This document shows, one piece after another, positions 931-61,100 of a stretch of DNA of 64,000 nucleotides (positions within the stretch are counted from its first letter, which is position 1; each line of letters opens with the position of its first letter). Under the pieces are notes generated by a model. That model was not told the DNA's origin, ran no database searches, and worked only from the letters and a program-made list of their open reading frames with translations. Made by a program: the position numbers and the translations under genes. Origin of the DNA: Escherichia phage FH3; the sequence record OR886155.1; one strand, 5' to 3'.

Positions 931-1371
931 TTATTTATTATTGAAACCCTTGCTCCAGTAATACTTACCGTTGCAAGACCTACTACAAAAATGGTTTTGG
1001 TTTTCTTTGTGGACCTTGTTACCCCTTCTCTCAAAAGATGTGCCACAATTACTACAAATCAAAGTAATGACCACACCCTTAGGTCTGTTCTCTAAGGTCT
1101 TCTTTAAGTGATCATTTGTGCTTAGAATCTGAAGGTTAGATATCTCATCATTGGTTGGATTTTGATCAACATGATCTACCTCTTCCTCCGCAGTAAGATA
1201 CCTCCCTACATGGCAAGACATTAAATACCTTGCATAAGAGATCGTAGTCCTATCTGTGTTAGAGTTGAATAGGTCAACACGCCTCCTCCCATCCTTACTT
1301 GTCCTTAAATACCCCAACCTCCAGTCATTGATGAAGGGGTATTCCAACTCTATTTTCAATACCACCTCCAT
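931..1371 (-). CDS. HNH-family endonuclease (putative homing endonuclease)
   Basis: HVDQNPTNDEISNLQILSTNDH motif plus C-terminal CSNCG...CSRSC zinc-finger-like cluster. Confidence 0.55.
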   Translation of the reverse strand: MEVVLKIELEYPFINDWRLGYLRTSKDGRRRVDLFNSNTDRTTISYARYLMSCHVGRYLTAEEEVDHVDQNPTNDEISNLQILSTNDHLKKTLENRPKGVVITLICSNCGTSFERRGNKVHKENQNHFCSRSCNGKYYWSKGFNNK

Positions 1372-1394
1372 TGAGCTAAGGGTGCTAGATTTGT

Positions 1395-1604
1395 TTAACT
1401 AAAGATACGAATGGCTACATCGTGACCAATATGACCGGGAACTTTATGCTGTTCTATTTTCAAACAGTGTTTACAGATACGAGATACACGAGATTCTTTT
1501 CTCTCGACCGGAGTGTCTTTAGCGTGGGTGATATGTAGGTTCTCAGTGATCACCCACTCGTGTTTACATCCAGAATCTTCGGGCTTTTTCTTACGAAAGA
1601 ACAT
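1395..1604 (-). CDS. small Cys/His-rich protein, Zn-ribbon paralog C
   Basis: Internal start MFFRKKK...; CKHEW...CKHC pattern related to the two upstream ORFs. Confidence 0.35.
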   Translation of the reverse strand: MFFRKKKPEDSGCKHEWVITENLHITHAKDTPVERKESRVSRICKHCLKIEQHKVPGHIGHDVAIRIFS

Positions 1605-1612
1605 AACACCCC

Positions 1613-1777
1613 TTAGATCAGATCTGTTTTCTTGTGCAGACCACACACTTTACAGCGAGAGTAGATACGCAACCCTTGTCGCTCTCTGTCAGTAAGTTTA
1701 TTTGTGATCGTCAGTTCATAAGTATGAAGATCTTCCCACTCATGGAAATGAAAGAAGCGTTTGAACCATTTGATCAT
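1613..1777 (-). CDS. small Cys/His-rich protein, Zn-ribbon paralog B (54 aa, below ORF-track cutoff)
   Basis: My translation: MIKWFKRFFHFHEWEDLHTYELTITNKLTDRERQGLRIYSRCKVCGLHKKTDLI; near-identical architecture to paralog A. Confidence 0.35.
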   Translation of the reverse strand: MIKWFKRFFHFHEWEDLHTYELTITNKLTDRERQGLRIYSRCKVCGLHKKTDLI

Positions 1778-1786
1778 AATGATTCC

Positions 1787-1948
1787 TTAGATTACATCAC
1801 GATGACTAACATCACCACACACCTTACACTGAATAACGTAACGTGTGCCCTTGTCGTTATTCCCATCTGAATCTGTATAGACCAGAGGGTGAGTATTAAT
1901 AATCTTCCAATCATGACAATGAAAGACACGCTTTAGCCACTTGAACAT
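1787..1948 (-). CDS. small Cys/His-rich protein, Zn-ribbon paralog A
   Basis: C-terminal part of ORF 1787-2122 from internal Met: MFKWLKRVFHCHDW...CKVCG. Confidence 0.35.
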   Translation of the reverse strand: MFKWLKRVFHCHDWKIINTHPLVYTDSDGNNDKGTRYVIQCKVCGDVSHRDVI

Positions 1949-1955
1949 ATTAACC

Positions 1956-2207
1956 TCAAGCACAAGCAGGGAGAGTGATGATTTTATACTGACCATCAAA
2001 CTCACTAAACAAACCCAAGAATGTAGGACTGTACGTACCAGTGCAAACAAACTCATCAAACAATGCGTTATAGCTAGGCTTAATCTTCCAAGCCCATACA
2101 TAACCCATCTTGTCAATTGCAATGTAACGAGTGTTCAGAGGAACAGTCATCATCACACCGTCAACTTCGATCACTTTAGTGATTGGTGCAGCTTGAAAGT
2201 TTTTCAT
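1956..2207 (-). CDS. hypothetical protein
   Basis: ORF track, 83 aa, same strand as flanking genes. Confidence 0.3.
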   Translation of the reverse strand: MKNFQAAPITKVIEVDGVMMTVPLNTRYIAIDKMGYVWAWKIKPSYNALFDEFVCTGTYSPTFLGLFSEFDGQYKIITLPACA

Positions 2208-2389
2208 ACTTTACCTTTGATAAAAATATCATTACCACAGACACAGCATGAACGAACAACAGTAGCGCCACGCTGAACGATACGAACCTCTTCCTTAACC
2301 AGATTAATACGAGCACCGCAGCAAGGGGAGTTGACATAAGAGTAACCAGCTTGCGTATGTTTTATTGTTTGCTTAGACATTTTATTCAA
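2204..2389 (-). CDS. small Cys-rich protein (CC...CC)
   Basis: ORF track; SPCCG...SCCVCG pattern. Confidence 0.3.
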   Translation of the reverse strand: MNKMSKQTIKHTQAGYSYVNSPCCGARINLVKEEVRIVQRGATVVRSCCVCGNDIFIKGKV

Positions 2390-5975: not shown

Positions 5976-6250
5976 AATCTTATTCCTTTTAGTGATAAAT
6001 TATATCGGGCAAGCCCATCAAGGTGACAGGCTTGAACAAATAACTTAATCGAGTAAACTAAATGACTTCCAACTGCGTAGCAGGATTGTACCATCATCCA
6101 TAGCCACGCATAACTTTAACAGCTTCTTGTTAGCACTACTCACCGTTGTAATTCGTCCGGTTGTACATTTACCTTTATTGCTATAAAGATAAACCACACG
6201 ACGGCCTAACAAACGAGATGGCGCTTCCTTAAATTCTGAAATGTTAGTGA

Positions 6251-6475
6251 TCATGATGCTTGATACCTTTGAATGTGTTCAATACGGGTTGATTGAGCAA
6301 ATGACGCTTTAACAGCCATTTTCCTAACTTCTTCTTTACGCTGGTTAGTGTGTACAGTATCCCAATGTTTGTTATCACGTTGGCGCTGTAATATCTTACT
6401 ACATTTGCGATGGTTTCCCGTGCTGCGATGTTTCTCACAAATAGGACACTTGCCAAAATTACTACTGAATATCAT
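6251..6475 (-). CDS. small basic Cys-containing protein
   Basis: ORF track; CPICEKH...HRKC cluster; the overlapping alternative frame 6244-6456 is judged less likely. Confidence 0.3.
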   Translation of the reverse strand: MIFSSNFGKCPICEKHRSTGNHRKCSKILQRQRDNKHWDTVHTNQRKEEVRKMAVKASFAQSTRIEHIQRYQAS

Positions 6476-6699
6476 TTTCTCAATCCCAGCTTTCTTAAGA
6501 TACGGCCTAACGTTGTTTCTTGCGTGATAATATAACTGATCGCTTCACGTTCCAGCGTTTCAATCTTCATTGGCGACGGATACCATTCACCGGTAATAAC
6601 ACATTTACATTCAACGCCATATTTTTTAGATAGGCGGTAATGTTGACCGTTGACAAGATTCCGATAAATCGTGGTATGCGTAATTAACATGATCATCAC
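6472..6699 (-). CDS. hypothetical small protein
   Basis: ORF track; abuts neighbours. Confidence 0.3.
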   Translation of the reverse strand: MMIMLITHTTIYRNLVNGQHYRLSKKYGVECKCVITGEWYPSPMKIETLEREAISYIITQETTLGRILRKLGLRK

Positions 6700-6801
6700 C
6701 TTTGATTAGATTCTTTGATTAATGCACTGAATCAATGCACTGATAAAAGAAAAGGCGCTACCCGTTAAGATAGCGCCTTATGTTTATTCGAATTGTCCTA
6801 C

Positions 6802-7710
6802 TTATGCCGCTTGGCGTGCTGCCATAATCTCAGCTGCCTTGCGCAATACTTCTTCCTCTTCTGCTTTCGCCGCTTGTTCGGTACGGGTAGCAACCGTTGA
6901 AGAGATACGACCTCGCAGACTTTCTAACTTCTCCTGCATAGCTGCAACAGTCTTTTCCATTTCATCAGCGTATGAATCGAGTGATTCTAATTCCTTGCTT
7001 GATGCGTTCATCAGATAATCATCTGAGATCGCTACCGTCGAGGCCGTTACTTTCTTGATGAGTGAATCAAAGGACTTTTTAACTTTGCCGACTTCTTCAC
7101 TCAAAGCAATGGTGTTATCACTGGTAGCGCCGTTGCGCTCATCAGCCAGTAATTTGGCTTCAATACGGATTGCATTCAAGCGTTCAACTAAAGCGTAAAT
7201 ATCCTGATTAAAATCTTCCTTGTTTTTCGCCGGAATTTGCAGGTGTGCCGCCACGTTGTCGTTGCAACCTTTGTAGAAGTTAGGATTATCCACTTCAATT
7301 GCACGACCTAAAGCAAAGTTTTCGAAAGCATTTGACCAGCGAGCACGATTTTGTTCCATTTTGGCCTTAATTTGCGCTTCTTTCGCGTCTTCTTTAGCTT
7401 TCGCCTCACCTTCCAGATTAATCCACTTTTTACGACCATTTGCCGCATCGGTGTTAAACTTGATAGGAGTTAAGAAAGTAATTGCAGTGGCAATCACATC
7501 CATATCACGAAAACGTTCGGTTAACAGAAAATCAACCGCCGACTGCAATACATCTAACTTCTTGCCGTTACTGCGGAAGTGCTGCAAGTGCCCTAACAGA
7601 AAATTAGAAACATCTTGTTTGATCGCCGCGTTATTGCTACGAATGTTGTTAGCCAGTGCGTTAAAACCAGATTCGTTAACCAGATTAAAGATCTTAGCCA
7701 TGATATTCAC
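6802..7710 (-). CDS. hypothetical early protein (coiled-coil C-terminus)
   Basis: 302-aa ORF, first gene downstream (minus sense) of the 1.8 kb non-coding region. Confidence 0.4.
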   Translation of the reverse strand: MNIMAKIFNLVNESGFNALANNIRSNNAAIKQDVSNFLLGHLQHFRSNGKKLDVLQSAVDFLLTERFRDMDVIATAITFLTPIKFNTDAANGRKKWINLEGEAKAKEDAKEAQIKAKMEQNRARWSNAFENFALGRAIEVDNPNFYKGCNDNVAAHLQIPAKNKEDFNQDIYALVERLNAIRIEAKLLADERNGATSDNTIALSEEVGKVKKSFDSLIKKVTASTVAISDDYLMNASSKELESLDSYADEMEKTVAAMQEKLESLRGRISSTVATRTEQAAKAEEEEVLRKAAEIMAARQAA

Positions 7711-9484
7711 CTTTCAATTGTAAGGGCGCTATTGCCCCGCTCTCTATGAGCTTGTTTAAGTCACTATTAACTTATCTCTAACCACTCACTTTTTAAGTAG
7801 TTACAGGTAAGTGAGGCGGTCTTATCAGGAGTTAACCTTGCCGCCTCCTTATCCGTGATGTTTCATCTGGTATCTTTAATTAGTCGCTATAAACGAAGCC
7901 GACCTGATAGCGATGATCAATCATCACAATAAGGCTATGCGTCCGACTCTATTTAATTACATTGCTGTAACCGTCGGCAATATCGTTTACTTTGTTTTCG
8001 CTCCCGCTTATCCTTTGTGCCAACTCCTGATCGCTAACCATCGCCCACTACGGGAGGCTATTGCGAAAAGGTCATTGACCGCCTAATATTCCGGCGTTTT
8101 ATATCTTTCAGCAGGTTTACTACATAAACCGACTATGTACTTTCGTCATAAGACGAATATCAAGCCGTTCACATCGTAAACGTTCGCATTAAACCTTATT
8201 GTTAAATAGCAATTTGCCACTTTTTAACCACTCCCCGCCGCCCTCAATTGGGCGTTAATTCTTCGGACTTGCCTACCCTGATTAACTTCTTTCACTGTAG
8301 CACCTTGTTAGCGATGACCGCCGCTACCCTTAACCGTGGGCGATTAGCTTAAGCCGTTGCGTGTACTCAATGAATCCGTTTATCAGTGGTGACTTTTCCA
8401 GTAAGGGAATGTAAGACTGTTTACCCTGATATTTTAGGGAGTCTTACACCGTTTTATCTGGTATGCTTTCCGATGGTTATTATCATCAAGCATATTCAAC
8501 CGATATATGGGAATGTTTAAATTATTAAAGAGCGGTAAATCTATCAGTGTGCTTTCTCACACTATGCAACTGTTAGCCGTTGTTACGCTTTTCACTGAAG
8601 CGATGATTTGCTTAGTGAGTGCTCATTATGAATCATGTTGTTTTCGCTGTCAACCGCTTTTTAATCTTTTTTCGTCGTTCCCGCTATTGGGAGGATATAT
8701 CAATCAGCTTTATTTGATTGAAGATTAAGCGGTGATGCTTAACTTATGATTCATATTGTTAAAGAGCGTTAGCCTTTTAGAGTGTCTGCTAATCACTGTC
8801 ACATTTAAGGCTTACTTATTCATTAACGGGCCGCCTACACCCGAACTACTCGCTGCACTATGTGCCACTTTTCCCGCGATACGTTGATTTGGGAACTTGT
8901 TAGCGGTGTATCTGCTAACTTGTGGTTAGTATGGACTACTTTAACCACGTTTGCAACTCTTTTTATCATCTTCTTTTAATTCCTTTCCCTTATCTCGCGT
9001 GAATCTATGCGAAAGGGCAAGATGATAAGTTTTTAAAGAGCGGGATTTTTTAAGTCATCGCTGACTATGCTCACTATATATCAGGCTGTTTTCGGTGTCA
9101 ATACTCTTTTTGAGAATATTTTCACTTTCTAACCTGATTTTTAAAGAGCGGGGCAATTTCTTGCCTTGTATGTTTTACATCGTACCCGATGAAATGAAGT
9201 ATACGCTAATCAGATGAGGTTGCAATAGGGTAAAGCAAATTATTTTAAACTTTTTCACTATAGGAAGGTAAAAGAGCAGGCGCACGCGATACATCATAGA
9301 AAACGGCTTGTAAAGCGATATTTAGCGGCCTAAAACGCATCACAACGAGCTAAAAGGGAGTAAGGCATACACTCACCTCATAAAAGAGAAAAGCCTCACT
9401 AGGAGGCTTACAGGAAGGATTAGAGAATCAGATAGATTATGACCATAGGCATGACTACGGCACAATACAGAAGAAAGATTAAGC
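7711..9484. repeat. 1.8 kb ORF-free region with reiterated motifs
   Basis: TTAAAGAGCG at 8525, 8759, 9033 and 9141; two hairpin + CCGT..TGTTT(C/T)ATCTGGTAT modules near 7820-7885 and 8400-8478; CACTATAGG at 9256-9264. Confidence 0.45.
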
Positions 9485-11248: not shown

Positions 11249-12015
11249 TTCGTTACTCCTTAGATAGATTCAGTCAACTGTCATCAACTATATATTAAAG
11301 GAAAAGACTGTCAACCATCTATTTTCTAACTTTCTTGCATCCTACTGAAAACTAAAGGAATTTAATTTACTAAACTTTCCATACTCAGAGAATCAGCTTA
11401 CTTCTTATTGTTACTTTATAACACTACGGGTAACAGACCAACAGACCAGGACAAACGGGGATACAACAACCGCAGGACAGACCACGGGGAAACACAGCCA
11501 GATAGTGCGGTAGTAATATACCACTTAAATAATTGTATAACTCAAACATCAAAGACGTTCGCTACGCTCACAAAGGCACGCTGAAAAAGAAAGTAATAAA
11601 AGAAACAATTAAAAGAAATACAATCATCCACTTAATTAATACATACATCATTATTGCACTCATAATCATTACTATTGAAACTATTTACACTCAAACTATG
11701 GGGGATGGAACGGTAACAATACGGTATTATTAGACCTGTTATGATTGTGCCTGTACAGTGCTAGCCTTTCTCTCACTCTTTAAAGGGGTACTAAATAAAC
11801 GGGTAGGTAATGTATTGGGTAGTATACACGGGGGAATAATTACGGGGAGTAGGCACGGGGAAAGGTGGAACATGTAAAGGGAAGGTAAAGGCATTGCCAA
11901 TAACCCTTTTTTAAATGAGGACTCCCCCTTTTTAGGAAACGCGCGGGAAGCGGCTAGCCCCACTCGGTCAAATCAGAATTTTAAACTCTTATATATAAGC
12001 TTAAGAGAGGACTTA
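11249..12015. promoter_or_regulatory. divergent intergenic control region
   Basis: Lies between the minus-strand early block and plus-strand genes; ACGGGG-type motifs clustered at 11426-11490 and 11798-11862; AT-rich tract 11580-11740. Confidence 0.35.
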
Positions 12016-25943: not shown

Positions 25944-25994
25944 GTGGTCACTGTTTTTCTTGTGCAGTTGATGCATCTTATAGCTAAATCTAAT

Positions 25995-47034: not shown

Positions 47035-47043
47035 TATTTATCC

Positions 47044-47790
47044 TCAAAATGGGCTATCGTTGTCGTCTTCATAAGTAGAAGCAGGCTCTTTATCAATCGT
47101 AGGGATTGAAGGAGTAGCTTCTTTCTGCTCTGTTTCAGAAGCACGAGTAATTTCACGACCAGCCAGAGGCATGTTCTTAGCGTCATTAGCTTGAGTAAGC
47201 AGGTTGCGCTGGAACGGGAACATCAGTTGATAGGATGCTACGTTCTCATCGGTTTCAGCATATGGTTCGAAGAATACCAGAGGACTACGAGCTTCACCAA
47301 CTGCTGCACGATATTTGGTTGGGATTGGAGAAATGGTCTTGATGGAGTTTTTAACTTCACCAGCTTTGTTAGTGTAAGAGTTAACCAGAATGTTAACAGG
47401 CTGACCTAACAGCACATCCTTGAACCAAGACAGATCACCTTTCAGTGCTTGAATACTTGGGTCAATCATCTTGCAAAGATCAAGAATACCAGAGTTCTTA
47501 GCTCGTGGGTTTACATCATAACTCTTGAACTGGCAAGCCGGACGTGGTTCTAATGCCTTACCATCGGAATCTTTACCAGTAGCATCAACACCAATCAGCT
47601 CGAAAGCTAAATCCATACGGAAAGCCGGATTCTTAGGAGTTACTGCTTTGGTCTTCGGGTCAATCCAAGGGTCACGATTGTGAACACCCAAACCTACTAC
47701 ACGAACGATACGTGCTTCGTACTCACCATCAGGGATTACATCGTAGTTGGATTTACGGGAAGCAGTTGCGATAGTTGGAATCATAGACAT
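47044..47790 (-). CDS. putative single-stranded DNA-binding protein
   Basis: 248 aa with acidic C-terminal tail ending ...YEDDNDSPF; first gene after an AT-rich promoter region. Confidence 0.4.
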   Translation of the reverse strand: MSMIPTIATASRKSNYDVIPDGEYEARIVRVVGLGVHNRDPWIDPKTKAVTPKNPAFRMDLAFELIGVDATGKDSDGKALEPRPACQFKSYDVNPRAKNSGILDLCKMIDPSIQALKGDLSWFKDVLLGQPVNILVNSYTNKAGEVKNSIKTISPIPTKYRAAVGEARSPLVFFEPYAETDENVASYQLMFPFQRNLLTQANDAKNMPLAGREITRASETEQKEATPSIPTIDKEPASTYEDDNDSPF

Positions 47791-48338: not shown

Positions 48339-48842
48339 TTAAATAATGAGATCTTGTTCTTTTCTTCTTTCATCGAAAACCTTCCTAATCTCTTGCAGAG
48401 AAACAGCTTTATAGTTAATTTGCTCCATTGATGTACAGAAATATCTACAATCATCAATTACATGGTTATGAGTATGAGCATAAATATTAAACTTCCCTCT
48501 CATCTCATCAGTGTGAATAGGAATATGAGTTACCCAAAACTCTTTATATTTATAATCACCAGAGATTCTACGGAAGACTTTCATCATATCAGGGAGAAGT
48601 TCTAATCTGTCATGATTCCCTAAGACCAGATGCTTCTCTCCTTTTACTTCAGCGATGATATCAAGGGCATATTTTTCAAACACCCAATCACCAGTAAAGA
48701 AGACTTTATCACGTTCAGTTACATGATCAAAAGCGGCTAGAATTACTTTGTCATGCTCTTCAATGTTTTTAAATTGCTTACGAAAACTACAAATGTTGCG
48801 ATGGCCTAAGTGACCATCTCCTGCAAAATAGACTTCAGCCAT
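48339..48842 (-). CDS. calcineurin-like metallophosphoesterase
   Basis: GDGHLGH ... GDWV ... GNHD ... H.H metal-ligand motifs. Confidence 0.65.
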   Translation of the reverse strand: MAEVYFAGDGHLGHRNICSFRKQFKNIEEHDKVILAAFDHVTERDKVFFTGDWVFEKYALDIIAEVKGEKHLVLGNHDRLELLPDMMKVFRRISGDYKYKEFWVTHIPIHTDEMRGKFNIYAHTHNHVIDDCRYFCTSMEQINYKAVSLQEIRKVFDERRKEQDLII

Positions 48843-50690: not shown

Positions 50691-50843
50691 TTAGTGCGTA
50701 TGCATCCAGTTAAGTCCAATCTGACAATCAGATGCCAGAGGACATTCCATGTTCAAGTACTCACCAGCTTTCTTAACGCAAAGCTCAGTGTGCTCTTTGA
50801 GTTTCTGTACATCGTTACGATTAACTGAGAACTGGCCCTCATC
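50691..50843 (-). CDS. DNA polymerase (family A), exon 2
   Basis: Encodes DEGQFSV...MECPLASDCQIGLNWMHTH*, matching the Pol A C-terminus after motif C; a stop lies immediately upstream in frame, so it cannot be an independent gene. Confidence 0.7.
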   Translation of the reverse strand, partial: DEGQFSVNRNDVQKLKEHTELCVKKAGEYLNMECPLASDCQIGLNWMHTH

Positions 50844-51441
50844 CATTTATGTTATTCCCAAATTACTTCGGGTATCGGACTATATCATAACAGCATAGCT
50901 AATTTGCTGTTGTTGGCGCTTCGAGGGTTTCCCTGTTAACCCCCTACTCCCGCAGGATAGTCTCTACACTTTCCACTTTCGAATCCATCTACAAGCGATT
51001 CCAAAGCTCACACCAAACCTTTCTGCAAGAGCAACACCAGTGCATTCATTGTTAAGCCAGAACTCTTTAGCAGCATTCTGTCTTTCTCTGTTTCTGCCAG
51101 TGTTTGACTCGATAGCATGTGCACTACCTTCTAAGATTTCTAGATGGTCAGTATTGCAACAAGCTCTATTCTTGCATTTATGGTTAACTTCATAACCGTC
51201 AGGGATGTTTCCAAATTTCTCTTCCATGACGTATCTGTGATACATGACCCATTTGCCATTTATCATTTTTCGAAAGTAACCATCTTTATTTAGTTTGTGT
51301 GAGATAGGGATGATACATCCTGTGCTAGTTGTTTCTAGCACTAGATCTTTCTTAGCCATATCACCTCCTAATAGCTTAGCTCGGTATTGCCCTCAACTTA
51401 ATGGTCGGGTTTCACCGAGTTCACCAACTTTTACATGCACA
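50844..51441 (-). mobile_element. group I intron in the DNA polymerase gene, carrying an HNH ORF
   Basis: 5' exon ends ...AUGCAU; intron nt 11-16 GUGCAU can form P1 with a U-G pair at the splice site; GACUA (50958-50963) and GAUAUAGUCC (50877-50886) match R/S (P7) elements; last intron nt is G; ligation restores ...IDMH-DEGQ... Confidence 0.7.
50964..51359 (-). CDS. intron-encoded HNH homing endonuclease
   Basis: YEVNHKCKNRACCNTDHLE motif; own RBS AGGAGGTGAT; entirely inside the predicted intron. Confidence 0.7.
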   Translation of the reverse strand: MAKKDLVLETTSTGCIIPISHKLNKDGYFRKMINGKWVMYHRYVMEEKFGNIPDGYEVNHKCKNRACCNTDHLEILEGSAHAIESNTGRNRERQNAAKEFWLNNECTGVALAERFGVSFGIACRWIRKWKV

Positions 51442-53142
51442 ATGAAGTTTATGCATATCAATTACCTTAGCACAACGAACCTTATCTTTCTCAATCCACT
51501 TGTTAAGGAACATCATAGCATATTTCATAACAACAGCACCAGCACATTGCAGGAGTGTGTTAAGGGCTTTATGAACCATAACTTTACCAGTGGCATCTCG
51601 TCTCATTGTAATCTTACGACCATCAACACCAATCAAGTATCCTTGAGCAGCTTTCTCTGTCATACGATCAATGAGGATTGCAATACATGGGTTCTCTGCC
51701 AAGAAACGTGCTCGCATCACTGAACCTTCGTCAGCCCCACCACCTACAATTGAACCAAGCTTAGCATCGCCAGCACCGTAGTTGAATGCATAGATAAACG
51801 TTTTAGCGTTGTCACGAGTAGGAAGACCAGCAAGTTTCTGGTTGTGGGAGTGGATATCACCTTCAAGGAGAATATCACGATACATAATAGCAGAAGCTAA
51901 ACCACGTTCTGCCAGAGCTTTCTTAGCTGGGTTGTTCTCTTCAATTGCCTCAGCAAGCATATCCCTACACTCTTTAATGAGGTAGTGAGCGAGCATACGA
52001 AGTTCAAGCCCAGAACCATCATACCCTAAGAATACTTCTTTACCAGCGGGTATGTAATATTTGTAAGCACCTACAGGTTTGTCTTTCTTCCCCGGTTTAC
52101 CTTTCTCATAAATTACGTTAGTACCTTTTCGTATATAACAACCATCAGGAACAACGTTAGTAATAACGAAAGGACGAGAATGATCACTGTCTGAGTTATA
52201 GTCAGACTCAAACAAACTGCGACACTCGTGACCAAACAAACCACGGGAGGGAATATTAACCACGATACGATGTTTGAATCGAAAAGTCGGCGTAGCGCAG
52301 CTGTTAGCTTCTGCCGAAAGTTTACCATCTTCGCGTTCCTTTGCTATGAGTCCACTGATAAGACCTAGCCTGTGAGCCGCTACAACGCGTCTCTTAAGCA
52401 AACTTCCGACACTCCCTAGCTCACCCCCTAACCCTTCTTCAAGAGTCTCCTCGAGGTTTGTAGGAGCTGTAGGCCACTTGTTTGAAGTGGCTAGTGCTTT
52501 CTTAATCTCATCAAACGTTACAGGATTACGTCGATTCGGGTTTAATCCCAAACCAAACACGTAAGCCTTCATATAGTTCTTAGTTTTAAACCTAAAATGC
52601 TTTTCTAAGAACTTCTTAATATCAGCGTCAACCATCTCGGCTGTCTGCTTCTGCTTAGCATTGCCTCGCATCCAAGCAGTATACCATGCTTGGTATGTTC
52701 CATACTTTCGCATGTCTTTCTTAATTTCGAAAGTATTCCAAGGTTTCTTAGATACGTTAAACTCTGGAGGAAGAAAGCCCTCATCCATAAGAGCTTCTTT
52801 AACTCGTGCATCTTTCGATGGGTCAAAGTCTACGTATTCGACACAGGTGAAAGCTCCACCAATATCTTCTCTCTTCAGCCCAACCCTATCACAATAGGCT
52901 TGAGGCCACTTCTGTAAAGCTCCAGACTTCTTAAACGGCTTCATGTAAGTAGAGCCATCTAATCTCATCTTAGGTAAGAGAGGAATCAACTCTCTGTCAA
53001 TATTAACAATAATCTCTTTAAGGAGGTGAATATACCACCGAGCATTTCTTCGGTTGAAACTCACTCCGTGCTTTGCTTGCTTAGAGATTATATCAGCGAC
53101 AGTCATCTCTGTCAAAAATGGAAGAGCGTCCGGGTTGCTCAC
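51442..53142 (-). CDS. DNA polymerase (family A), exon 1
   Basis: Motif A GYDGSGLELRMLAHY and motif B RDNAKTFIYAFNYGAGDAKLG present; motif C absent from this ORF; the last 9 codons of the listed ORF are intron sequence. Confidence 0.85.
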
Positions 53143-54197: not shown

Positions 54198-54491
54198 CTA
54201 GAGACGAAGCCAAGTTTGATAGTCAGCTTCAGTGTAATGGTTGTTTCGAGAGTTGTTTTTCATTCCCTTGAGAGTAGCTCTCAGGTCAATGTTATGCTCT
54301 CTCCTTGTTCTATTCGGGTCTGTATCTTCTAATAGATGGGAGTGATCACTACAAGAGTAGTGCTTATAGTGGTCCCTGTATCCTCTACTTGGAGAATACT
54401 TGGTCATTAAAGTTGCAACTCTTTTTACACCCTCTGCTTTACAGAATTTACAATAAGTGTGAATGGTACATCTTTTTGTTTCTGCTGACAC
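54198..54491 (-). CDS. hypothetical Cys/His-rich protein
   Basis: ORF track. Confidence 0.3.
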   Translation of the reverse strand: MSAETKRCTIHTYCKFCKAEGVKRVATLMTKYSPSRGYRDHYKHYSCSDHSHLLEDTDPNRTRREHNIDLRATLKGMKNNSRNNHYTEADYQTWLRL

Positions 54492-54509
54492 TATAACCTC
54501 TTTATGAGC

Positions 54510-54788
54510 TTAAAGCTCCTTTGCGTGCTCCAGCTGCTTTTCCAGCTCGATCACCACTTTTGCCGCCGTTTGAACGGTTTGAGCTGACTGATTCAACACG
54601 TAAGTTGCTTGACGCATTAGAGCCTCCAGACTTGACAGCTCGTTTGTGTCCAACGTCTTTACCTCTGACAGCAGCTTTTCCATCGCGCTTTTCAACGATG
54701 CGACGTGCACGGTGGCGCTGAGCATCTCCGCTCTTGCTCCCAATTCCCGTTTCACCGCGCTTGATCGCAGTCCTTCTTTCTTGTGCAT
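54510..54788 (-). CDS. hypothetical coiled-coil protein (one of two overlapping frames)
   Basis: ORF track; the alternative frame 54502-54816 encodes a basic low-complexity product. Confidence 0.25.
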   Translation of the reverse strand: MHKKEGLRSSAVKRELGARAEMLSATVHVASLKSAMEKLLSEVKTLDTNELSSLEALMRQATYVLNQSAQTVQTAAKVVIELEKQLEHAKEL

Positions 54789-54815
54789 AATCTCTTTTTC
54801 CTACATGATCTGCCA

Positions 54816-55145
54816 TTAGATTTCTCCTGATTCTCTTTGATTAAAGGTGTGGATGGCGTGGCAATTAGCACACAATATCCTGCACTTCCTCATCTCTTCT
54901 TTTACTTGAGATAAAGATCTGGTGTGCCCTTTGGAGAGTTCGAATGACTTAGTTAATGGATTTAAATGATCAAACTGAAGAGCAGATGCGTGGCCCTTAA
55001 AGCCACACTCAGAGCATCCATAGAATGTTTTAACTCTACGAATAAAAGCTAGTTGCCTAACTCTTCTTCTCTCGTTATCTGCCTTTCTCTTATCTCTATT
55101 TCCTGGGTCGGCCCATCTACACGAGTCATTGCAAAACCTCTGCAT
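54816..55145 (-). CDS. HNH endonuclease
   Basis: CSECG...FDHLNP...CANCH. Confidence 0.7.
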   Translation of the reverse strand: MQRFCNDSCRWADPGNRDKRKADNERRRVRQLAFIRRVKTFYGCSECGFKGHASALQFDHLNPLTKSFELSKGHTRSLSQVKEEMRKCRILCANCHAIHTFNQRESGEI

Positions 55146-55439
55146 TATATACTTCGTTACAAATGGTACCTTACAGGTTTCACATTCCTTGTGGTAGGTT
55201 GCTATTTGGACCTCCTACTCAGTGTAAATAAAACCCTCTTCTATCATTGACTTTTGAGTACTAATCACTCCACCCTCCCGGTGGTTCAAAATTTTCTTGA
55301 ACATCCAGAACCTCTACATCATCACTCAGGTAGGTACTCTTGCCAAAACCTAAAAGCCAGCGAGCTTTATCAATATCTTTATAAAAATTAAGAGCTGCAC
55401 TACCATCATAACACTCACGAACTATAATACCGATTTTCA

Positions 55440-56180
55440 TTAACTGTTTACCTTTTCCATTGCTTTAACAATCGCCTTACAGAAACCAGAACGAACAATA
55501 TCATCTGACTCACCGTCTACAATCTCAGCGAACTCATACAGATCATGTTCATCAATAAAATTAGTAGCCCAAGTTAGGCCACTCTCACGACCACGCATAT
55601 CATGCTGGTTAGTATCACCCATGCAGAACAGCTGAGAGGTTTCTCCCAATCGAGTCATGATTGAGAAGGCTTCATCTTTAGTGGTGTTCTGGAACTCATC
55701 AACAATAACAATAGCATCATTGAAAGAACGACCACGGAGATATTCCAGAGGTACAAATTCAATGTTACCATTTCCGATTTGGCATTCATAGAATCCCTTA
55801 CCGTATCGCTGAGTAATAACATCAATGATAGGCATCAGGTAGGGTTCAAACTTCTCGCGCATTCCTCCCGGAAGTAACCCAAGAGAGTTACCCATGCCGA
55901 CCGAAGGGCGACTCAGAATGATCTTCTGAATCTTACCGCTTTTCAGTGCATCAATAACCGTGGAAGTGATTACAAAGGTCTTACCACAGCCCGCAGGAGC
56001 ATCTGTGAACACAACTTGTTTAGTCTTGATAGCATTGAGTAGCTCAGACTGAAACTGGTTCTGAGGGACTACAGGCTTTGCTAAAACCACCTCTTCATAC
56101 TCTCGCTTACCTTTACGAGTAACAAGTGCTTCTCGACGAAGGTCTTTCCGTGATTCTTTCCGTGATTGACGACGACTCAT
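55440..56180 (-). CDS. phoH: PhoH-like ATPase
   Basis: Walker A DAPAGCGKTF and overall PhoH-like layout. Confidence 0.8.
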   Translation of the reverse strand: MSRRQSRKESRKDLRREALVTRKGKREYEEVVLAKPVVPQNQFQSELLNAIKTKQVVFTDAPAGCGKTFVITSTVIDALKSGKIQKIILSRPSVGMGNSLGLLPGGMREKFEPYLMPIIDVITQRYGKGFYECQIGNGNIEFVPLEYLRGRSFNDAIVIVDEFQNTTKDEAFSIMTRLGETSQLFCMGDTNQHDMRGRESGLTWATNFIDEHDLYEFAEIVDGESDDIVRSGFCKAIVKAMEKVNS

Positions 56181-56362
56181 TTACGCTCTCCAATTTCTTC
56201 GTAATGACACTCAGTAGTTAAGCAGTCTTTACAGATTGCTGTATAAACCCTGACGTTAGTAAATCGTTTGTTCTTCCCTTTGGTTGGAGAGCCTTTGGCA
56301 AGCTCTCTGATAACCTTGTTACTTAAATGAAGGTTTGTTCCTTCACATTTAGAGCACTTCAT
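56177..56362 (-). CDS. small Zn-ribbon protein
   Basis: CSKCEG...CKDCLTTECH. Confidence 0.3.
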   Translation of the reverse strand: MKCSKCEGTNLHLSNKVIRELAKGSPTKGKNKRFTNVRVYTAICKDCLTTECHYEEIGERK

Positions 56363-57605
56363 TGTTTACCTCAGAAATTATAAGGGTCATAATCAAGAGA
56401 ATCAAACCCATAATCTGAGCTATTAAGGTATCGGCGCTTTAATCCGAAATCTTCGTAGTGAGGTTTTCCAGGAACAGTTTTGCCTTTGGTTATGTTCGTT
56501 ACTTGACTAGAAGAGAAAAGGTGAACCCCTTCAGAAGTCCTAGCAGAAGATTTTTCTCCTTTCTTAACCACTTTTCCTTTTTTGGCCCATCCTTCGAATG
56601 TTCTATATTGCATCAAAACTCCTTACCACAATGTCCATTCAGTAAGGGACCACAGAGAGTCCCCTATGTGGGTGTTGTCATGTCGGATGAGATCTTTGAT
56701 TTTATCAACATCAGTCAAGTGAGTTACATTCAAGATATCCTCAACATCTGGAACATGTTTGAATATGGCAACAATGTTATTACCATCATCAGAAAACTCC
56801 TCAAGCACATAAACTACACTCATGCGACATTAGCCTCTTTATGAAGTCTGTAAATAGCTGTCGCCATGCAAGCAACAGCCTCGTTGTGTGGGAGGTGCAT
56901 CCCTGTAGAACCATCCCAATCTTTGAACTCACTGTCAAAGACTCCGGTAGGCTCTGGATACAGAGCTTGCAGCTCCACTAGATCGTTAGCAACTTGTTGC
57001 CATTTATCGTCAGACCAGATAGGGTCATCCAACCAGTAATACAAATAGGAATGGATGATCAATTGCCTTCTGTGCCGATTAATTACTTCAGCGGGACTTA
57101 TCTCACTTCCATTTGAAGTCCTAAATGTATTACTGTCAATCATTACGAAAATTCCCGTTCTGTTAAAGAGTGCTGAACTTCATTATCCGGAGACCAAACC
57201 TTTTCTCCATTTACCAATTTCTTAGCATCTTCATCTGAAGCACAATCTAAAGCAGGATTATCAGGTGTTGGCTTCTTTGGAAATCTTTTCCAAGTCCAAA
57301 AATATCCGTCATCGTCTTGGCAACCAAGAGTCCACAAAGTTTTCATTTCACAACCTTAAATTTAAATGTTGTTGGGTGAGAATAATTCCACACAGTCAAG
57401 CATGTAGTAGGAGTAACCAAAGGGTTTGGCTGTTAAGTTGGAAACCATTTTATCAAAAAGGGATTGAGAAACATCCTCTTCTACTCCAACATCCTCAAGC
57501 TGCTGCTTTGTAGGATAGTCAGTGAAAGAGCAAAGAATTTCTGTATCCTCTCCTCTGTCTGCATCCTCAACACGACTCAGAATCCAAATATTCTTCCTAA
57601 CCATT

Positions 57606-58262
57606 TTAATTCTCCAAAGTTTTCTTCAGAGCTGCCCACGAGATTGGGTAGAGCTTAGCCATCTCTTCATCTACGGATTTAGCAAACACTCGAACTTCAT
57701 ATTGAGCGTGAGAGGATAGTCGCTGACGGCACAACTCAAACCAGCCATACAAAGAACCAGTCCACACCCACTCAGTGATCATCCCCTGAGGAAGAACAAA
57801 TCGAGCTTGCTCTGGTGCAATAAATTCAATCAACTTATCATATGCTGCTAAAGAAGCTTCATATGCATCGTTAATCAACATTAATGCTTCAGCTCGCTCT
57901 CCGTCGATGAGTTGAATCCCTGAACCTGCATGGAGGTCCGAAGGTCTCGCAAAAATCTCTTTAGGGATGAAGACTTCAACTGCTCCATCTTTATACCGCC
58001 GGGACATTTCGTTCCACGAGAATCCAACCTGATGCTTTCCCAGCTGTCTCGCAATTGCGATAGGTGCTTTGCATCGGAAACTGACTTGCGGGTGTCGGAA
58101 TGGAGTACAGTGTTTTTCCCGTGCAAGGAAGTTGATAAGTTTTGTGTCTCTCTCATTTAAGTCACCTTCTCGAACAACACCGAAAGATACTCTAGCTGCA
58201 TTGACTACAGATTTGTCACTTCCCATTGCTTCAATCAGTGTTGCTTGTAGTTGTTCGTTCAA
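57606..58262 (-). CDS. thyX: ThyX-like flavin-dependent thymidylate synthase homolog with atypical signature motif
   Basis: HCTPFRH...KAPIAIARQL...SWNEMSRRY fits ThyX; the position where I expect the RHR motif reads K-H-Q. Confidence 0.7.
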   Translation of the reverse strand: MNEQLQATLIEAMGSDKSVVNAARVSFGVVREGDLNERDTKLINFLAREKHCTPFRHPQVSFRCKAPIAIARQLGKHQVGFSWNEMSRRYKDGAVEVFIPKEIFARPSDLHAGSGIQLIDGERAEALMLINDAYEASLAAYDKLIEFIAPEQARFVLPQGMITEWVWTGSLYGWFELCRQRLSSHAQYEVRVFAKSVDEEMAKLYPISWAALKKTLEN

Positions 58263-58701
58263 TTAAAAGTTCCTTTTTTCGATTCATGTAAACTTGATGA
58301 GCTTCTTCGGCAGTTCCATACATACCTAGATGTATATCTACTTTATCAATACAAATAACAGCCCTATATCTGATAGTGCCTGATCTGTATTTGACAACCT
58401 TAACACCTTGAAGCCCTGTTTCCTTGTTTGATACTCTAGCCCCGAACTGGTTGTGGCAGTTTGTCGAGGTGTCCACCAATCTCAAGTTCTGTATTGAGTT
58501 GTTCTTCTTATTTCTATCGATATGGTCTATCTGAGAAGAAGGCCATTCTCCATAGTAAAAGAACCATGCCACTTTATGAGCTTTGTGTACTTTCCCTTTA
58601 AACCGCAGGGTTATGTACTTACTTCGAGTTCCTCCTAATTTCTTACCTTTTCGAAAGAACTCTCCAGTTTCAGGGATATACTCTAAATCATCGATTACCA
58701 T
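58231..58701 (-). CDS. HNH homing endonuclease with AP2-like DNA-binding domain
   Basis: SQIDHIDRNKKNNSIQNLRLV motif; C-terminal ...HLGMYGTAEEAHQVY. Confidence 0.7.
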   Translation of the reverse strand: MVIDDLEYIPETGEFFRKGKKLGGTRSKYITLRFKGKVHKAHKVAWFFYYGEWPSSQIDHIDRNKKNNSIQNLRLVDTSTNCHNQFGARVSNKETGLQGVKVVKYRSGTIRYRAVICIDKVDIHLGMYGTAEEAHQVYMNRKKELLIERTTTSNTD

Positions 58702-58966
58702 TCAGAGCTGTATCCAAAAAAGCTTTCAGGTTTGCTTCAGTCTGCATACCAGAAATGCTGTAGTGTGCACCACTATTACGGTCAGGCACAATGAAAGCAG
58801 GGATGCTTCGTACACCATACTTAACAGCTTGTTCACGACCATCACCTTCAAGGATGTTAATCTCTTCCACTTCTACATCAAACTCCTTAACAACCTTCTC
58901 AAAGGTAGGAGCCATTGCTTTACATGGAGCACATTGATCACTATAAAACTTAATTACTTTAGACAT
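58688..58966 (-). CDS. thioredoxin
   Basis: 92 aa, FYSDQCAPCK active-site CxxC, thioredoxin-length. Confidence 0.75.
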   Translation of the reverse strand: MSKVIKFYSDQCAPCKAMAPTFEKVVKEFDVEVEEINILEGDGREQAVKYGVRSIPAFIVPDRNSGAHYSISGMQTEANLKAFLDTALNGNR

Positions 58967-58974
58967 GTAAATCC

Positions 58975-59154
58975 TTATGCAGTCAGGAGGTGAAGCAGGA
59001 ATGGGATAACAACAGCTATGATAACCATGATGGTTGATGCTGTTTGAATCTCACCTTTCTTATCAGGGGTTTCTTCAATAAGCTTCCCAGAAGCCCAATA
59101 AATACCACCACCAATAAAGATAGCCCAAATACCCCATACGATTGCTGATAACAT
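58975..59154 (-). CDS. small two-TM membrane protein (59 aa, below ORF-track cutoff)
   Basis: My translation MLSAIVWGIWAIFIGGGIYWASGKLIEETPDKKGEIQTASTIMVIIAVVIPFLLHLLTA. Confidence 0.3.
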   Translation of the reverse strand: MLSAIVWGIWAIFIGGGIYWASGKLIEETPDKKGEIQTASTIMVIIAVVIPFLLHLLTA

Positions 59155-59214
59155 ATATCTATATCCTTATAAATAAGTTCGCCCCACCTCGGGTTAGGAG
59201 ACAGGGCGGAGGTT

Positions 59215-59793
59215 TTAGTAAGACACATCACCACTTGAATGGGACATGTTGCTCTTGACGAAGTAGCAATACTTGCCAAGACCTTCATTAATTTCTTGAA
59301 GCATACTCTGATCGACAGGGTAGGTGGCTAAATCACCATCAAACTCATCCATCTTCTCAATAATACACATCAAGGTCATGCACATATCAGAGAGCATACC
59401 GTCCATGTCTAGATCAGCATTACCCTCTGAGAACCAAGCATGAGAGAGGTAGTTAGCTGCTGTAGCATCCACTTTAACACAGTGGTAACGCATACGTTCA
59501 GCAATACGATCTCCTACCTGTCGTGCGTAATCTTCCAGCTCATCAAACATACCATGAACACCTTGAAATCCTGCACCAGAGACGTTCCAGTGGTAGTTTT
59601 TAGCTTTGATATGCAAGAGTTCCATGTTAGCTTGTAAGCAGCTCAGGATGTGTTCTAGGCTGTTTCCACTAATCATACCCTGCATTGTTTCAAGGCGAGA
59701 GATTGATAGGTCGGACCGGTCTAACATGCTATAACTGTCACGACCGATCTCAGGTAAATCAAAAACATTCTTATGCATTTGGGTTTTCTCCAT
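59215..59793 (-). CDS. Dps/ferritin-like protein
   Basis: LQANMELLHIKAKNYHWNVSGAGFQGVHGMFDELEDYARQVGDRIAERM resembles the Dps four-helix ferroxidase region. Confidence 0.5.
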   Translation of the reverse strand: MEKTQMHKNVFDLPEIGRDSYSMLDRSDLSISRLETMQGMISGNSLEHILSCLQANMELLHIKAKNYHWNVSGAGFQGVHGMFDELEDYARQVGDRIAERMRYHCVKVDATAANYLSHAWFSEGNADLDMDGMLSDMCMTLMCIIEKMDEFDGDLATYPVDQSMLQEINEGLGKYCYFVKSNMSHSSGDVSY

Positions 59794-60100
59794 CCAGTTC
59801 AACTGAGTTAGCAACATTACGTGCGATATTATCCATTACCTGCTGAGTAATTACGATGCAGTTCTGTGGGTCTACTGACTTAGAACGCCCCATTTCAGGG
59901 TCATACACCTTAACTCGCTTAGCAGTTGAACCTGTAACCTGAAGAACCTTCAACAGATATCCCTGATTACCAATAGACCAAGCAACAACATCACGATTCT
60001 TGATAAAGCGACCAAGCATATCACGATGATAAAACTGTTGCATCACCTTGGATTTTGTAATCTCTTCAGTGGGCGGGGCCACTTTACTCAAATCTAACAT
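59771..60100 (-). CDS. hypothetical protein
   Basis: ORF track. Confidence 0.3.
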   Translation of the reverse strand: MLDLSKVAPPTEEITKSKVMQQFYHRDMLGRFIKNRDVVAWSIGNQGYLLKVLQVTGSTAKRVKVYDPEMGRSKSVDPQNCIVITQQVMDNIARNVANSVELDGENPNA

Positions 60101-60172
60101 AACTCTCTCCTGTAAAATACAAATTCTTGTTGTACTCTATATACATTTGAGAGTTACCATATCTACTACCAA

Positions 60173-60382
60173 TCAGTAATAAATTACTTTAGACATAAAA
60201 GAACCCGAGTTAGGGTCTTCGTACCAGCGATGAATGTCAGCACTTTTAACTGTTCCAATTAAAGTTTTCATCTTCTTCTTAGCAATACGAGCATCTTTAC
60301 GGGTGTCAAATAATTTGATATTATCTTTACCTAGATGGTGTCCATCTTCCCAAACAACACGAACAGCCCATATCTTTTTCAT
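60173..60382 (-). CDS. small basic protein, paralog pair member 1
   Basis: MKKIWAVRVVW...; adjacent to a similar ORF. Confidence 0.35.
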   Translation of the reverse strand: MKKIWAVRVVWEDGHHLGKDNIKLFDTRKDARIAKKKMKTLIGTVKSADIHRWYEDPNSGSFMSKVIYY

Positions 60383-60576
60383 TAGTAATGTACCTTTCCG
60401 CTGATATAAACACGACCAGAGGAATACTCTCTGGCCTTATGAATGCTAATACTCTTAGTTAAGTCCATATTGAACATAGACTTTTTAAACTCTCGAGCTT
60501 GTTGGCGGGTAGGTAGTGCAGTCATAGTCATACCACCTGATGCCCACTTAATCTTCGCTAACCAGAATTGTCTCAT
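60382..60576 (-). CDS. small basic protein, paralog pair member 2
   Basis: MRQFWLAKIKW... Confidence 0.35.
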   Translation of the reverse strand: MRQFWLAKIKWASGGMTMTALPTRQQAREFKKSMFNMDLTKSISIHKAREYSSGRVYISGKVHY

Positions 60577-60629
60577 TTATCTTTCATCCACATTAAAGGA
60601 GAGATGAAGTCTACTTCTCATAGACTTCG

Positions 60630-61100
60630 CTAGGAGTTTTGCCTCTTCAAGAGTTTTACTCCATACACAGACTCACGTTTACCATCTTTTTGAACAGATA
60701 CACAGAACGTCCCGCCCTTCTCTTGGTAGACATTCTTAACTCCTAGCTTGTTATCAACCCTTGTCTTAGCATTCTGACTGTTCTCAGAGTGAGAGCACTT
60801 TCTCAGGTTAGTTTCTTCTAGGTTTTCTCTGTTACCATCGGCATGATCTATTTGATATTCATCCGATAAATCCTCACCAGTATAAAGAACAAAAAGAATC
60901 CTATGATTATGGACACGAACTCCTCCTAAGGGAATTTGATAATACCCATCTTTTGTGAGCTTGCCATCAGGTTTACCTACTATATCATTAGCAAACTTAC
61001 TAGGCTTCCTTTTCCAAGAAAGCCCTGAAGGGGATGACATGTCTATATTAAAGAGATCAACTACTTCATCATAGCATATCAGCATGATTTGTTCCACCAA
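60630..61100 (-). CDS. HNH homing endonuclease
   Basis: YQIDHADGNRENLEETNLRKCSHSEN motif. Confidence 0.7.
   Translation of the reverse strand: MVEQIMLICYDEVVDLFNIDMSSPSGLSWKRKPSKFANDIVGKPDGKLTKDGYYQIPLGGVRVHNHRILFVLYTGEDLSDEYQIDHADGNRENLEETNLRKCSHSENSQNAKTRVDNKLGVKNVYQEKGGTFCVSVQKDGKRESVYGVKLLKRQNS

Follow-up and report, generated by a model that had tools for sequence, protein, structure and literature searches.

HNH endonuclease genes and a DNA polymerase intron in the phiEco32-like coliphage FH3

The stretch of DNA analysed here, 64,000 nucleotides (nt) of Escherichia phage FH3 (OR886155.1; hereafter the window), carries eight genes for HNH endonucleases, numbered HNH1 to HNH8 in the order of their positions. 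The window comes from a lytic phiEco32-like coliphage (Kuravirus, Gordonclarkvirinae) and covers most of its genome. Six of the genes are free-standing and occur in a small part of the related phages, HNH5 lies in a group I intron of the DNA polymerase gene, and HNH3 is shared by essentially all relatives. It is likely that homing endonuclease genes (HEGs), which are selfish elements, have accumulated in this phage in unusually high number, six of them free-standing and one encoded by the intron, next to the conserved HNH3. Megablast searches of positions 12000-36000 and 42000-64000 against public phage records returned about 100 phiEco32-like podoviruses of E. coli, the nearest being Escherichia phages 1-6af and 1-6bf (98-99% identity).

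HNH genes of the window and their distribution

The list of open reading frames (ORFs) of the window contains all eight HNH genes at the coordinates and strands given below, and all eight products match PHROG families annotated as 'HNH endonuclease' (best E-values from 8e-27 to 1e-54). The positions reported in the initial annotation were thus confirmed, and the HNH motifs were upheld by the profile searches. Five of the eight proteins (HNH2, HNH4, HNH5, HNH7 and HNH8) also exceed the curated cut-off of Pfam HNH_3, with positions 2-45 of the 46 in the model covered, and the His/Asn motif residues can be seen by inspection in all eight translations. Two types are present: HNH1, HNH2, HNH4, HNH5, HNH7 and HNH8 are HNH_3/I-HmuI-like, and HNH3 and HNH6 are classical zinc-ribbon proteins (CxxC...DH...CxxCH). 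Searches of PDB sequences with HNH3 and HNH5 gave no useful match. The eight proteins share at most 37% identity with one another, over 72 residues, and such divergence points to independent acquisitions rather than duplications. Together the genes comprise 3,438 nt, or 5.4% of the window, which equals one gene per 8 kb. The corresponding numbers of HNH genes in related phages are two in phiEco32 and SU10, three in EcoN5, four in ES17 and YF01, five in 1-6bf and seven in 1-6af.

Occupancy was determined by comparing each gene, together with about 400 bp of flank on each side, with all records, and coverage of at least 80% was taken as presence at the locus. In raw record counts, HNH1 was present at its locus in 5/97, HNH2 in 8/87, HNH4 in 8/92, HNH5 with its intron in 10/77, HNH6 in 6/98, HNH7 in 5/96 and HNH8 in 9/94. 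The seven polymorphic genes thus each occupy their locus in 5-13% of about 90 related records, and the free-standing six in 5-10%. HNH3 and its flanks reach the same coverage in 68 of 97 records, and the matches of lower coverage still span the gene. Variable HNH content among relatives, expected if the genes are mobile, is accordingly found for seven of them and not for HNH3.

The same picture emerged from a local tblastn search against seven fetched relatives. HNH3 was found in all seven (95-100% amino acid (aa) identity), HNH1, HNH2 and HNH5 only in 1-6af and 1-6bf (the HNH1 locus being covered in phiEco32, 1-6af and 1-6bf only), HNH4 in 1-6af and SU10 and not in 1-6bf, HNH6 only in 1-6af, 1-6bf and ES17, HNH7 only in ES17, and HNH8 in 1-6af, ES17 and EcoN5. 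None of the seven has the complete set of eight. The window, 1-6af and 1-6bf are approximately 99% identical, yet they differ at HNH4, at HNH7 and at HNH8 with the adjoining dcd gene. Relatives also carry HNH genes at sites which are empty in the window, namely phi32_31 (31450-31902 of phiEco32), EcoN5 gp047 (38429-38923) and Paul gp111 (738-1250), the latter two being 37 and 44% identical to HNH2, respectively. With these three sites the number of loci occupied by HNH genes in the pan-genome of the group rises to at least 11, and the position of related HEGs differs from phage to phage. A published comparison of kuraviruses describes HNH domains as numerous (four in YF01) and is silent on homing or introns (PMC9965538).

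HNH7 (58231-58701, minus strand; 156 aa; Pfam HNH_3 2e-13; phrog_99 5e-42) is composed of an HNH motif and an AP2-like C-terminal region. It is free-standing between trxA and thyX, and it overlaps the start of thyX by 32 nt. Relative to 1-6af, which is 99.8% identical and lacks the gene, HNH7 is a 440-bp insertion (58262-58701). Over positions 54504-64000 this block and 15 substitutions are all that separates the window from 1-6af, and 12 of the 15 substitutions fall into the two 500-bp bins flanking HNH7. Among them is a recoded 5' end of thyX (58227-58262, minus strand; 36 nt), where the start codon is changed from ATG to TTG and codons 2-12 contain five synonymous changes: the sequence is ATGAATGAACAACTACAAGCAACATTAATCGAAGCT in 1-6af and TTGAACGAACAACTACAAGCAACACTGATTGAAGCA in the recoded form. 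These six silent changes in codons 1-12 were present in 5/5 genomes with HNH7 (the window, ES17, TH38, YW01 and myPSH2311, originating from the USA, Japan and India) and in 0/7 genomes without it. All the thyX changes are silent, and ThyX is identical at 218 of 219 residues between the window and 1-6af. Silent changes linked to a HEG and situated beside its insertion are expected if the HEG-minus sequence is the target and the HEG-plus sequence is immune, or if donor flank was co-converted. The recoded patch is probably the target/immunity site of HNH7.

HNH8 (60630-61100, minus strand; Pfam HNH_3 2e-9; phrog_99 1e-33) is likewise free-standing and overlaps the stop codon of dcd, the overlap being 17 nt from the likelier start, ATG 61085, and 32 nt from TTG 61100. 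With HNH7 at the thyX start, this substantiates the overlaps with the ends of conserved genes that had been proposed at first. HNH8 lies in a divergent block of 0.8-1.2 kb relative to phiEco32, and relative to 1-6bf the exchanged block comprises HNH8 and dcd (60577-61739). The dcd gene (dCTP deaminase; 61069-61623, minus strand; 184 aa) is a divergent allele, sharing 102/177 aa and approximately 60% of nucleotides with the 177-aa allele. It was found in 4/4 genomes with HNH8, and the standard allele in 4/4 genomes without it, the 1-6af/1-6bf pair included. In the window and 1-6af, HNH8 has a 1-nt deletion compared with ES17 and EcoN5. The resulting frameshift replaces the last 24 aa, which by inspection correspond to the final helix of the AP2-like DNA-binding region. 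This copy may be beginning to decay, and decaying copies are predicted by the cycle of HEG invasion and decay.

The remaining free-standing genes were mapped by blastn against phiEco32, relative to which HNH2, HNH4 and HNH7 are clean insertions of 424-499 bp. The I-HmuI-like HNH2 (20972-21484, plus strand; 170 aa; Pfam HNH_3 6e-13; phrog_59 8e-40; PDB 1U3E 2e-5) is an insertion of approximately 490 bp (from about 20960/20991 to 21458/21476). Its neighbours are the capsid Ig-domain ORF on one side and, on the other, the virion/gatekeeper gene preceding the tail fibre, in agreement with the proposed location of an HNH gene between capsid and tail genes. HNH2 took over the ribosome binding site (RBS), the ATG and the first five codons (MAMPD) of this downstream virion structural (gatekeeper-like) gene, and its own 3' end supplies a substitute RBS and start. 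HNH4 (46621-47034, minus strand; 137 aa; Pfam HNH_3 7e-13) has a NUMOD4-like N-terminus (23.3 bits, cut-off 23.4). Its insertion (46622-47047; 424-426 bp) begins directly after the stop codon of the upstream gene. The genes adjoining HNH4 are that for the spanin and the phi32_40 homologue, which is hypothetical, and not ThyX.

HNH6 (54816-55145, minus strand; 109 aa; phrog_2255 8e-27; PF01844 21.0 bits) is a classical HNH gene between the phi32_58 homologue and phoH. Here the phi32_59 homologue, a small gene, has had its 3' half replaced by the block 54818-55235, which takes the place of phiEco32 42901-43111. HNH1 (931-1371, minus strand; 146 aa; phrog_14913 1e-54; Pfam HNH_3 24.7 bits) lies within a replacement block of 1.1 kb (812-1905) at the tRNA-Arg locus, and this block is absent from phiEco32. 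In phage Paul a different, SPO1-like HNH gene of 170 aa is found on the opposite side of tRNA-Arg.

Two structures were noticed beside these genes. Directly downstream of HNH1, an aberrant tRNA-like sequence (841-919, minus strand; extended stem 823-937) replaces the tRNA-Arg(UCU) of phiEco32 and Paul, and 1-6af has the same sequence. In this element the T-arm is canonical and the anticodon arm carries UCU. A D-arm is missing from its usual position, the anticodon arm is followed by 20 inserted nt, which include a D-loop-like AAUUGGA, and the 'acceptor' stem is extended to approximately 18 bp. It scores 29.7 bits against the Rfam tRNA model (gathering threshold 29). ARAGORN found no tRNA in the window and rejected the element both there and in 1-6af, while it found a normal tRNA-Arg in phiEco32 and Paul. 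The three sequences (window/1-6af, phiEco32 and Paul) are very unlike each other, and the element may be a pseudogene, a rearranged tRNA or another structured RNA. The second structure is a conserved slippery heptamer, GGGAAAG (20328-20334), at the end of the major capsid gene, between the ORFs 19288-20346 and 20358-20870. It is annotated as a programmed frameshift site joining the major head protein to the Ig-domain ORF in phage Paul and, according to a note in the Paul record, in phiEco32. The insertion of HNH2 follows shortly after this capsid-decoration unit.

HNH3 (42295-42696, minus strand; 133 aa; phrog_3106 6e-40) is a classical HNH gene (CxxC...DH...CxxCH) and lies downstream of the gene for the 5'-3' exonuclease. 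Its orthologue in phiEco32 is phi32_30 (94.7% aa identity); the second HNH gene of that phage, phi32_31, is absent from the window. HNH3 is a conserved gene of the lineage and not demonstrably mobile, and it may have been domesticated. Its 3' part is overlapped by a long ORF (42075-42437, minus strand) with a weak WYL-domain match (20.4 bits, cut-off 21.8) and a phrog_3715 match, and at this place the relatives annotate only a shorter gene of 75-84 aa.

The DNA polymerase intron

The DNA polymerase gene of the window is interrupted by a group I intron of 607 nt (50844-51450, minus strand), of a subgroup IA type with P7.1 and P7.2, located between His564 and Asp565. Exon 1 (51451-53142, minus strand) comprises codons 1-564, and exon 2 (50691-50843, minus strand) codons 565-614 and the stop codon. 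In a tblastn search with phiEco32 gp53, residues 1-564 aligned to 53142-51451 and residues 565-614 to 50843-50694 with 99.8-100% identity, exon 2 being 100% identical to the C-terminus of gp53. The intron splits motif C (HDE) between His and Asp-Glu, with which exon 2 starts, and its excision would restore the reading frame exactly as in the uninterrupted polymerase of phiEco32. Inside the intron lies HNH5 (50964-51359, minus strand; I-TslI-like, 131 aa; Pfam HNH_3 7e-12; phrog_6254 2e-41), whose start is preceded by a strong RBS (TAGGAGGTGAT-ATG).

A scan of the whole window with Rfam at gathering thresholds reported no intron, only the borderline tRNA. A sensitive local scan detected Intron_gpI (RF00028) with 26.2 bits (E 2e-4 in a 1-kb search), and the GACUA / GAUAUAGUC P7 core was aligned. 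In P1 the exon end AUAUGCAU pairs with the guide GUGCAUGU, forming 8 bp which close in U.G at the 5' splice site. The 3' end of the window intron is ...AAAUG|GAU, with a terminal G.

Homologous introns reside at the same site in Kuravirus, Suseptimavirus, T7-like phages and Vibrio phage Vp_R1, and orthologues of HNH5 are found inside those of 13a, VSG32, HZP2, Vp_R1, ECBP2 and SU7. At the nucleotide level the window intron is 65-69% identical to those of 13a, HZP2, VSG32 and others, and in the RefSeq record of phage 13a gene 5 is annotated as a join around the homologous intron. Nine fetched introns from three phage groups are 601-613 nt long and have identical junctions (...GCAU|AAAC ... G|GAYGA). 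A plain MAFFT alignment of the introns with their ORFs deleted misaligned the P7.2/P3'/P8 region and was replaced by an anchor-segmented alignment, on which the helices were scored explicitly; P3 and P7 form a pseudoknot, and RNAalifold is therefore unable to show both at once. All tested helices (P1, P3-P5 and P7-P9; P2 and P6 were not among them) pair fully in the kuravirus, T7-like and Vibrio copies. P1, P3, P7.2, P8 and P9 vary yet keep their pairing through compensatory changes, and P4, P5, P7 and P7.1 are invariant across the three clades. The exon-pairing guide has also co-varied with the exon (AUGCAU/GUGCAU vs GUGCAU/GUGCAC).

Taken together, the window intron appears to belong to the known PhiI/W31 (I-TslI) family of group I introns. 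As described in PMC3428280 with reference to Bonocora & Shub (2004), introns of this family are of subgroup IA2 with P7.1/P7.2, carry an HNH ORF (I-TslI) in P6a and are inserted at polymerase site 881, and those of phages PhiI and W31 are self-splicing. I-TslI is listed among intron-encoded nicking enzymes (PMC8845596). The intron-borne position of HNH5 is thus borne out by comparative structure and by homology to a characterised intron family of T7-like DNA polymerases. No paper on introns or homing in phiEco32-like phages was found in the literature. The annotation 'DNA polymerase (x2)' in ES17, EcoN5 and Paul was considered as a sign of the intron and rejected, as the second entry is the exonuclease subunit and the polymerase is uninterrupted.

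Genome layout and other variable regions

The gene order of the window is collinear with that of phiEco32 (NC_010324). Structural and lysis genes are located on the plus strand from about 12.4 to 41.7 kb, and early, replication and nucleotide-metabolism genes on the minus strand on both flanks of this block. A region of 193 bp (11763-11955) aligns by blastn to the linear phiEco32 record twice, at its left end (positions 1-193) and at its right end. This region corresponds to the direct terminal repeat, present in a single copy, and the window hence spans the physical ends of the genome, the sequence having been circularly assembled or permuted.

The tail-fibre region (22364-25992; ORF 22233-25943, 1236 aa) has no nucleotide similarity to phiEco32, two tail-fibre genes of which are replaced. 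It also differs partly from 1-6af and 1-6bf, with gaps at 23045-23606 relative to the latter. This replacement is a swap of a host-range cassette and is unconnected with the HNH genes. The density of single-nucleotide polymorphisms against the 99% relatives peaks at 6001-8500 and 11501-12000 (24-62 differences per 500 bp), that is, in the region of the phi32_124 homologue and in the gene-poor stretch upstream of the genome end; no HNH gene lies there.

Several small non-nuclease genes, all on the minus strand, are polymorphic for insertions and deletions (48339-48842, 54198-54491, 56371-56616, 57362-57604 and 2382-2786). The first encodes a metallophosphoesterase (phrog_547, Pfam Metallophos). 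The 97-aa ORF at 54198-54491 is present in the window, SU10 and ES17 and absent from the 99%-identical 1-6af and 1-6bf. These five and 1395-1646 were among the window-specific insertions relative to phiEco32 which were considered as additional HEGs and rejected: one codes for the metallophosphoesterase, the others for unknown small proteins, and none for a nuclease. HEGs of other classes (GIY-YIG, LAGLIDADG and T5orf172) were not found among the window-specific insertion ORFs scanned, the regions shared with phiEco32 being judged from the annotations of the relatives.

Homing, its alternatives and known systems

HEGs beside essential phage genes, co-conversion of flanking sequence and marker exclusion are all established, as is spread by nuclease-triggered repair, both for the intronless homing of T4 seg/mob and for the polymerase introns of Bacillus and T7-like phages (PMC2988022, PMC10448857). 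Intronless homing would account for HNH1, HNH2, HNH4, HNH6, HNH7 and HNH8, which are wedged between conserved genes or overlap their ends. During co-infection with a HEG-less relative, the nuclease would nick or cut the DNA of the relative near the empty site, and recombinational repair would copy the HEG and some of the donor flank into the recipient. The carrier would be protected by a changed copy of the target, namely, in the case of HNH7, by a thyX whose first 12 codons are silently recoded and, in that of HNH8, by the divergent dcd allele. In the polymerase gene, splicing would restore the uninterrupted mRNA, and HNH5 would target intron-less polymerase genes, the intron itself disrupting the target in its carrier. 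No intron-linked substitutions were found in the polymerase exons beside the intron, which fits an element that protects its carrier by physically splitting the target. Polymorphism, linked flank variants and clean junctions support the HEG traffic proposed in the initial annotation and suggest that it is active.

Several points weigh against this reading. HNH1 falls just short of the Pfam HNH_3 cut-off (24.7 vs 24.8 bits) and HNH6 of that of PF01844 (21.0 vs 21.4 bits), and HNH3 has no Pfam match, its PHROG match being strong. The Rfam score of the intron is below the gathering threshold (26.2 vs 50 bits), the ribozyme being split by the ORF, so that the model covers no more than its 3' half. 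The occupancy figures include RefSeq/GenBank duplicates and, as raw counts, ignore phylogeny. HEG-linked flank variants, clear for HNH7 and HNH8, give a weak signal for HNH6, come from one lineage only and are not independent for HNH2, and were not found for HNH4. The frameshifted HNH8 of this phage may be inactive. Nuclease activity, target sites, splicing and homing are putative for the window phage, and, kuraviruses being mosaic, ordinary recombination without an endonuclease could yield some of the presence/absence pattern.

The HNH genes might accordingly be morons shuffled by homologous or illegitimate recombination, not homing at present and some or all of them inactive relics. The indel polymorphism of non-nuclease ORFs (48339-48842 for the phosphoesterase; 54198-54491, 56371-56616 and 2382-2786 for proteins of unknown function) would fit such shuffling, and so would HNH4 without its flank signature and the frameshift of HNH8. 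We nevertheless regard it as quite unlikely, since the polymorphic nuclease genes sit exactly at the ends of conserved genes, HNH7 and HNH8 are strictly linked to silent or allelic changes in the neighbouring gene of the kind expected from target immunity and co-conversion, and, of 15 substitutions found over 9.5 kb, 12 are concentrated at the junctions of HNH7. For the family to which HNH5 belongs, moreover, both mobility and nuclease activity have been documented (PMC3428280, PMC8845596). For the polymerase gene, a different proposal is that HNH5 marks a split gene coding for two polypeptides (573 aa and a 51-aa 'M-DEGQ...') rather than an intron. Kuraviruses do have an ATG directly before exon 2, the 51-aa ORF is annotated in ECBP2, SU7 and PAS59, and the low Rfam score could be read the same way. 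A split gene is nonetheless highly improbable: the T7-like and Vibrio homologues have no such ATG and end in ...GAAAG|GAY, the break falls within the catalytic HDE triad, the intervening RNA combines P1, P3-P5 and P7-P9, a U.G at the 5' splice site and a terminal G with compensatory changes in three clades, and the PhiI and W31 introns of this family self-splice (PMC3428280).

It may also be asked whether the HNH proteins serve the phage, by HK97-like packaging, degradation of host DNA or competition and anti-defence, and are not selfish at all. HNH3 is present in essentially all relatives, and its orthologue is labelled 'terminase small subunit' in some records; the kuravirus review likewise does not uphold this label and places the small terminase in a different gene (PMC9965538). 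Intron endonucleases can also be weapons against co-infecting phages (PMC11620839). The seven other genes are absent from about 90% of close, viable relatives and are hence non-essential. An HNH gene next to the terminase, the packaging role of which was to be checked, does not exist in the window. The large terminase gene is located at 13912-15453, the nearest HNH gene is HNH2, 5.5 kb downstream and present in 8/87 records, and HNH3 is 27 kb away on the opposite strand. With no HNH gene adjoining the terminase, a terminase-associated packaging role is without positional support. HNH proteins of the HK97 gp74 type reportedly take part in packaging in association with the terminase (Kala et al. 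2014). That type is marked by adjacency to the terminase or portal gene together with conservation, a combination found for none of the HNH genes in the window. We therefore doubt that the genes as a group serve the phage, although some chance of it remains.

Homing, rather than ordinary mosaic recombination, is thus the probable cause of the distribution of the seven polymorphic genes. A more far-reaching idea, which we offer tentatively and consider possible rather than probable, is that the sub-lineage of the window, 1-6af and 1-6bf is on its way to becoming a HEG 'sink', in the way that T4 is one among the T-even phages. Rare HEGs would be stacked in it by frequent co-infection and would act as interference weapons which impose their flanking alleles (the recoded thyX and the foreign dcd), and the polymerase intron would move between unrelated coliphage families (Kuravirus/Suseptimavirus and the T7-like phages) and a Vibrio phage via the universally conserved coding sequence of motif C, which it would target. 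If this is true, HNH target sites could be read straight from comparative genomics by means of linked silent recoding.

The intron family and the HEG classes are already known, as is the tendency of HEGs to lie by essential and nucleotide-metabolism genes; so are co-conversion and marker exclusion. Seven rare HEGs stacked in one 77-kb podovirus with clean linkage signatures are a nice example and not a surprise, and they leave the understanding of HEG biology unchanged. The value of the case is that of a clean natural example of HEG invasion of a small lytic phage, in which three near-identical isolates differ by single HEG events and the silent 36-nt patch linked to HNH7 provides a ready prediction of a target site. 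For annotation, the case shows that several kuravirus records contain an intron-split gene where they list 'DNA polymerase' fragments and 'hypothetical' ORFs. Also, many kuraviruses are candidates for phage therapy, and HEG-driven marker exclusion bears on recombination among the members of a cocktail.

The closest known counterpart of the intron is the PhiI/W31 family, to which its homology is inferred via 13a and relatives. Both interrupt a family A DNA polymerase directly behind the motif C His, at site 881 as numbered in E. coli Pol I, and both are of the size class of 601-613 nt, with P7.1/P7.2 and, in a peripheral loop, an HNH ORF of approximately 131 aa that has its own RBS. The window phage differs in belonging to another family-level group, the Gordonclarkvirinae (C3 podoviruses of approximately 77 kb), and in having a polymerase without exonuclease domains. 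Among the nicking enzymes of Bacillus phage polymerase introns (I-HmuI, I-HmuII and I-BasI), the structure of I-HmuI (1U3E) is matched by HNH2 (E 2e-5), and the HNH_3 motif is common to this family and HNH1, HNH2, HNH4, HNH5, HNH7 and HNH8. The window genes of this type differ in being free-standing, save HNH5, and their products have a much shorter C-terminal side or other DNA-binding modules (NUMOD4-like, AP2-like and, by inspection, helix-turn-helix-like).

Phage T4, an outlier among the T-even phages, has 15 HEGs in approximately 169 kb, which take up 11% of its coding capacity (PMC2988022). Like its seg and mob genes, the HNH genes of the window are intergenic nuclease genes between conserved genes and patchily distributed among relatives, with probable flank co-conversion or a variant target in the carriers of HNH7 and HNH8, and their density is comparable (8 in 64 kb vs 15 in ~169 kb). 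Unlike in T4, all eight are of the HNH type with no GIY-YIG enzyme, their sequences show no relationship to those of the T4 enzymes, they occupy 5.4% instead of 11%, and they are known from sequence alone. HEG-bounded units of exchange have been described in ICP1 and other phages (Barth, Dunham & Seed 2023; PMC10448857). As in ICP1, HEGs of the window bound exchanged segments beside essential and nucleotide-metabolism genes, and one locus can hold different HEGs in different isolates, as at tRNA-Arg with HNH1 here and another HNH gene in Paul. The exchanged units are 0.4-1.2 kb in the window phage, compared with islands of more than 10 kb in ICP1.

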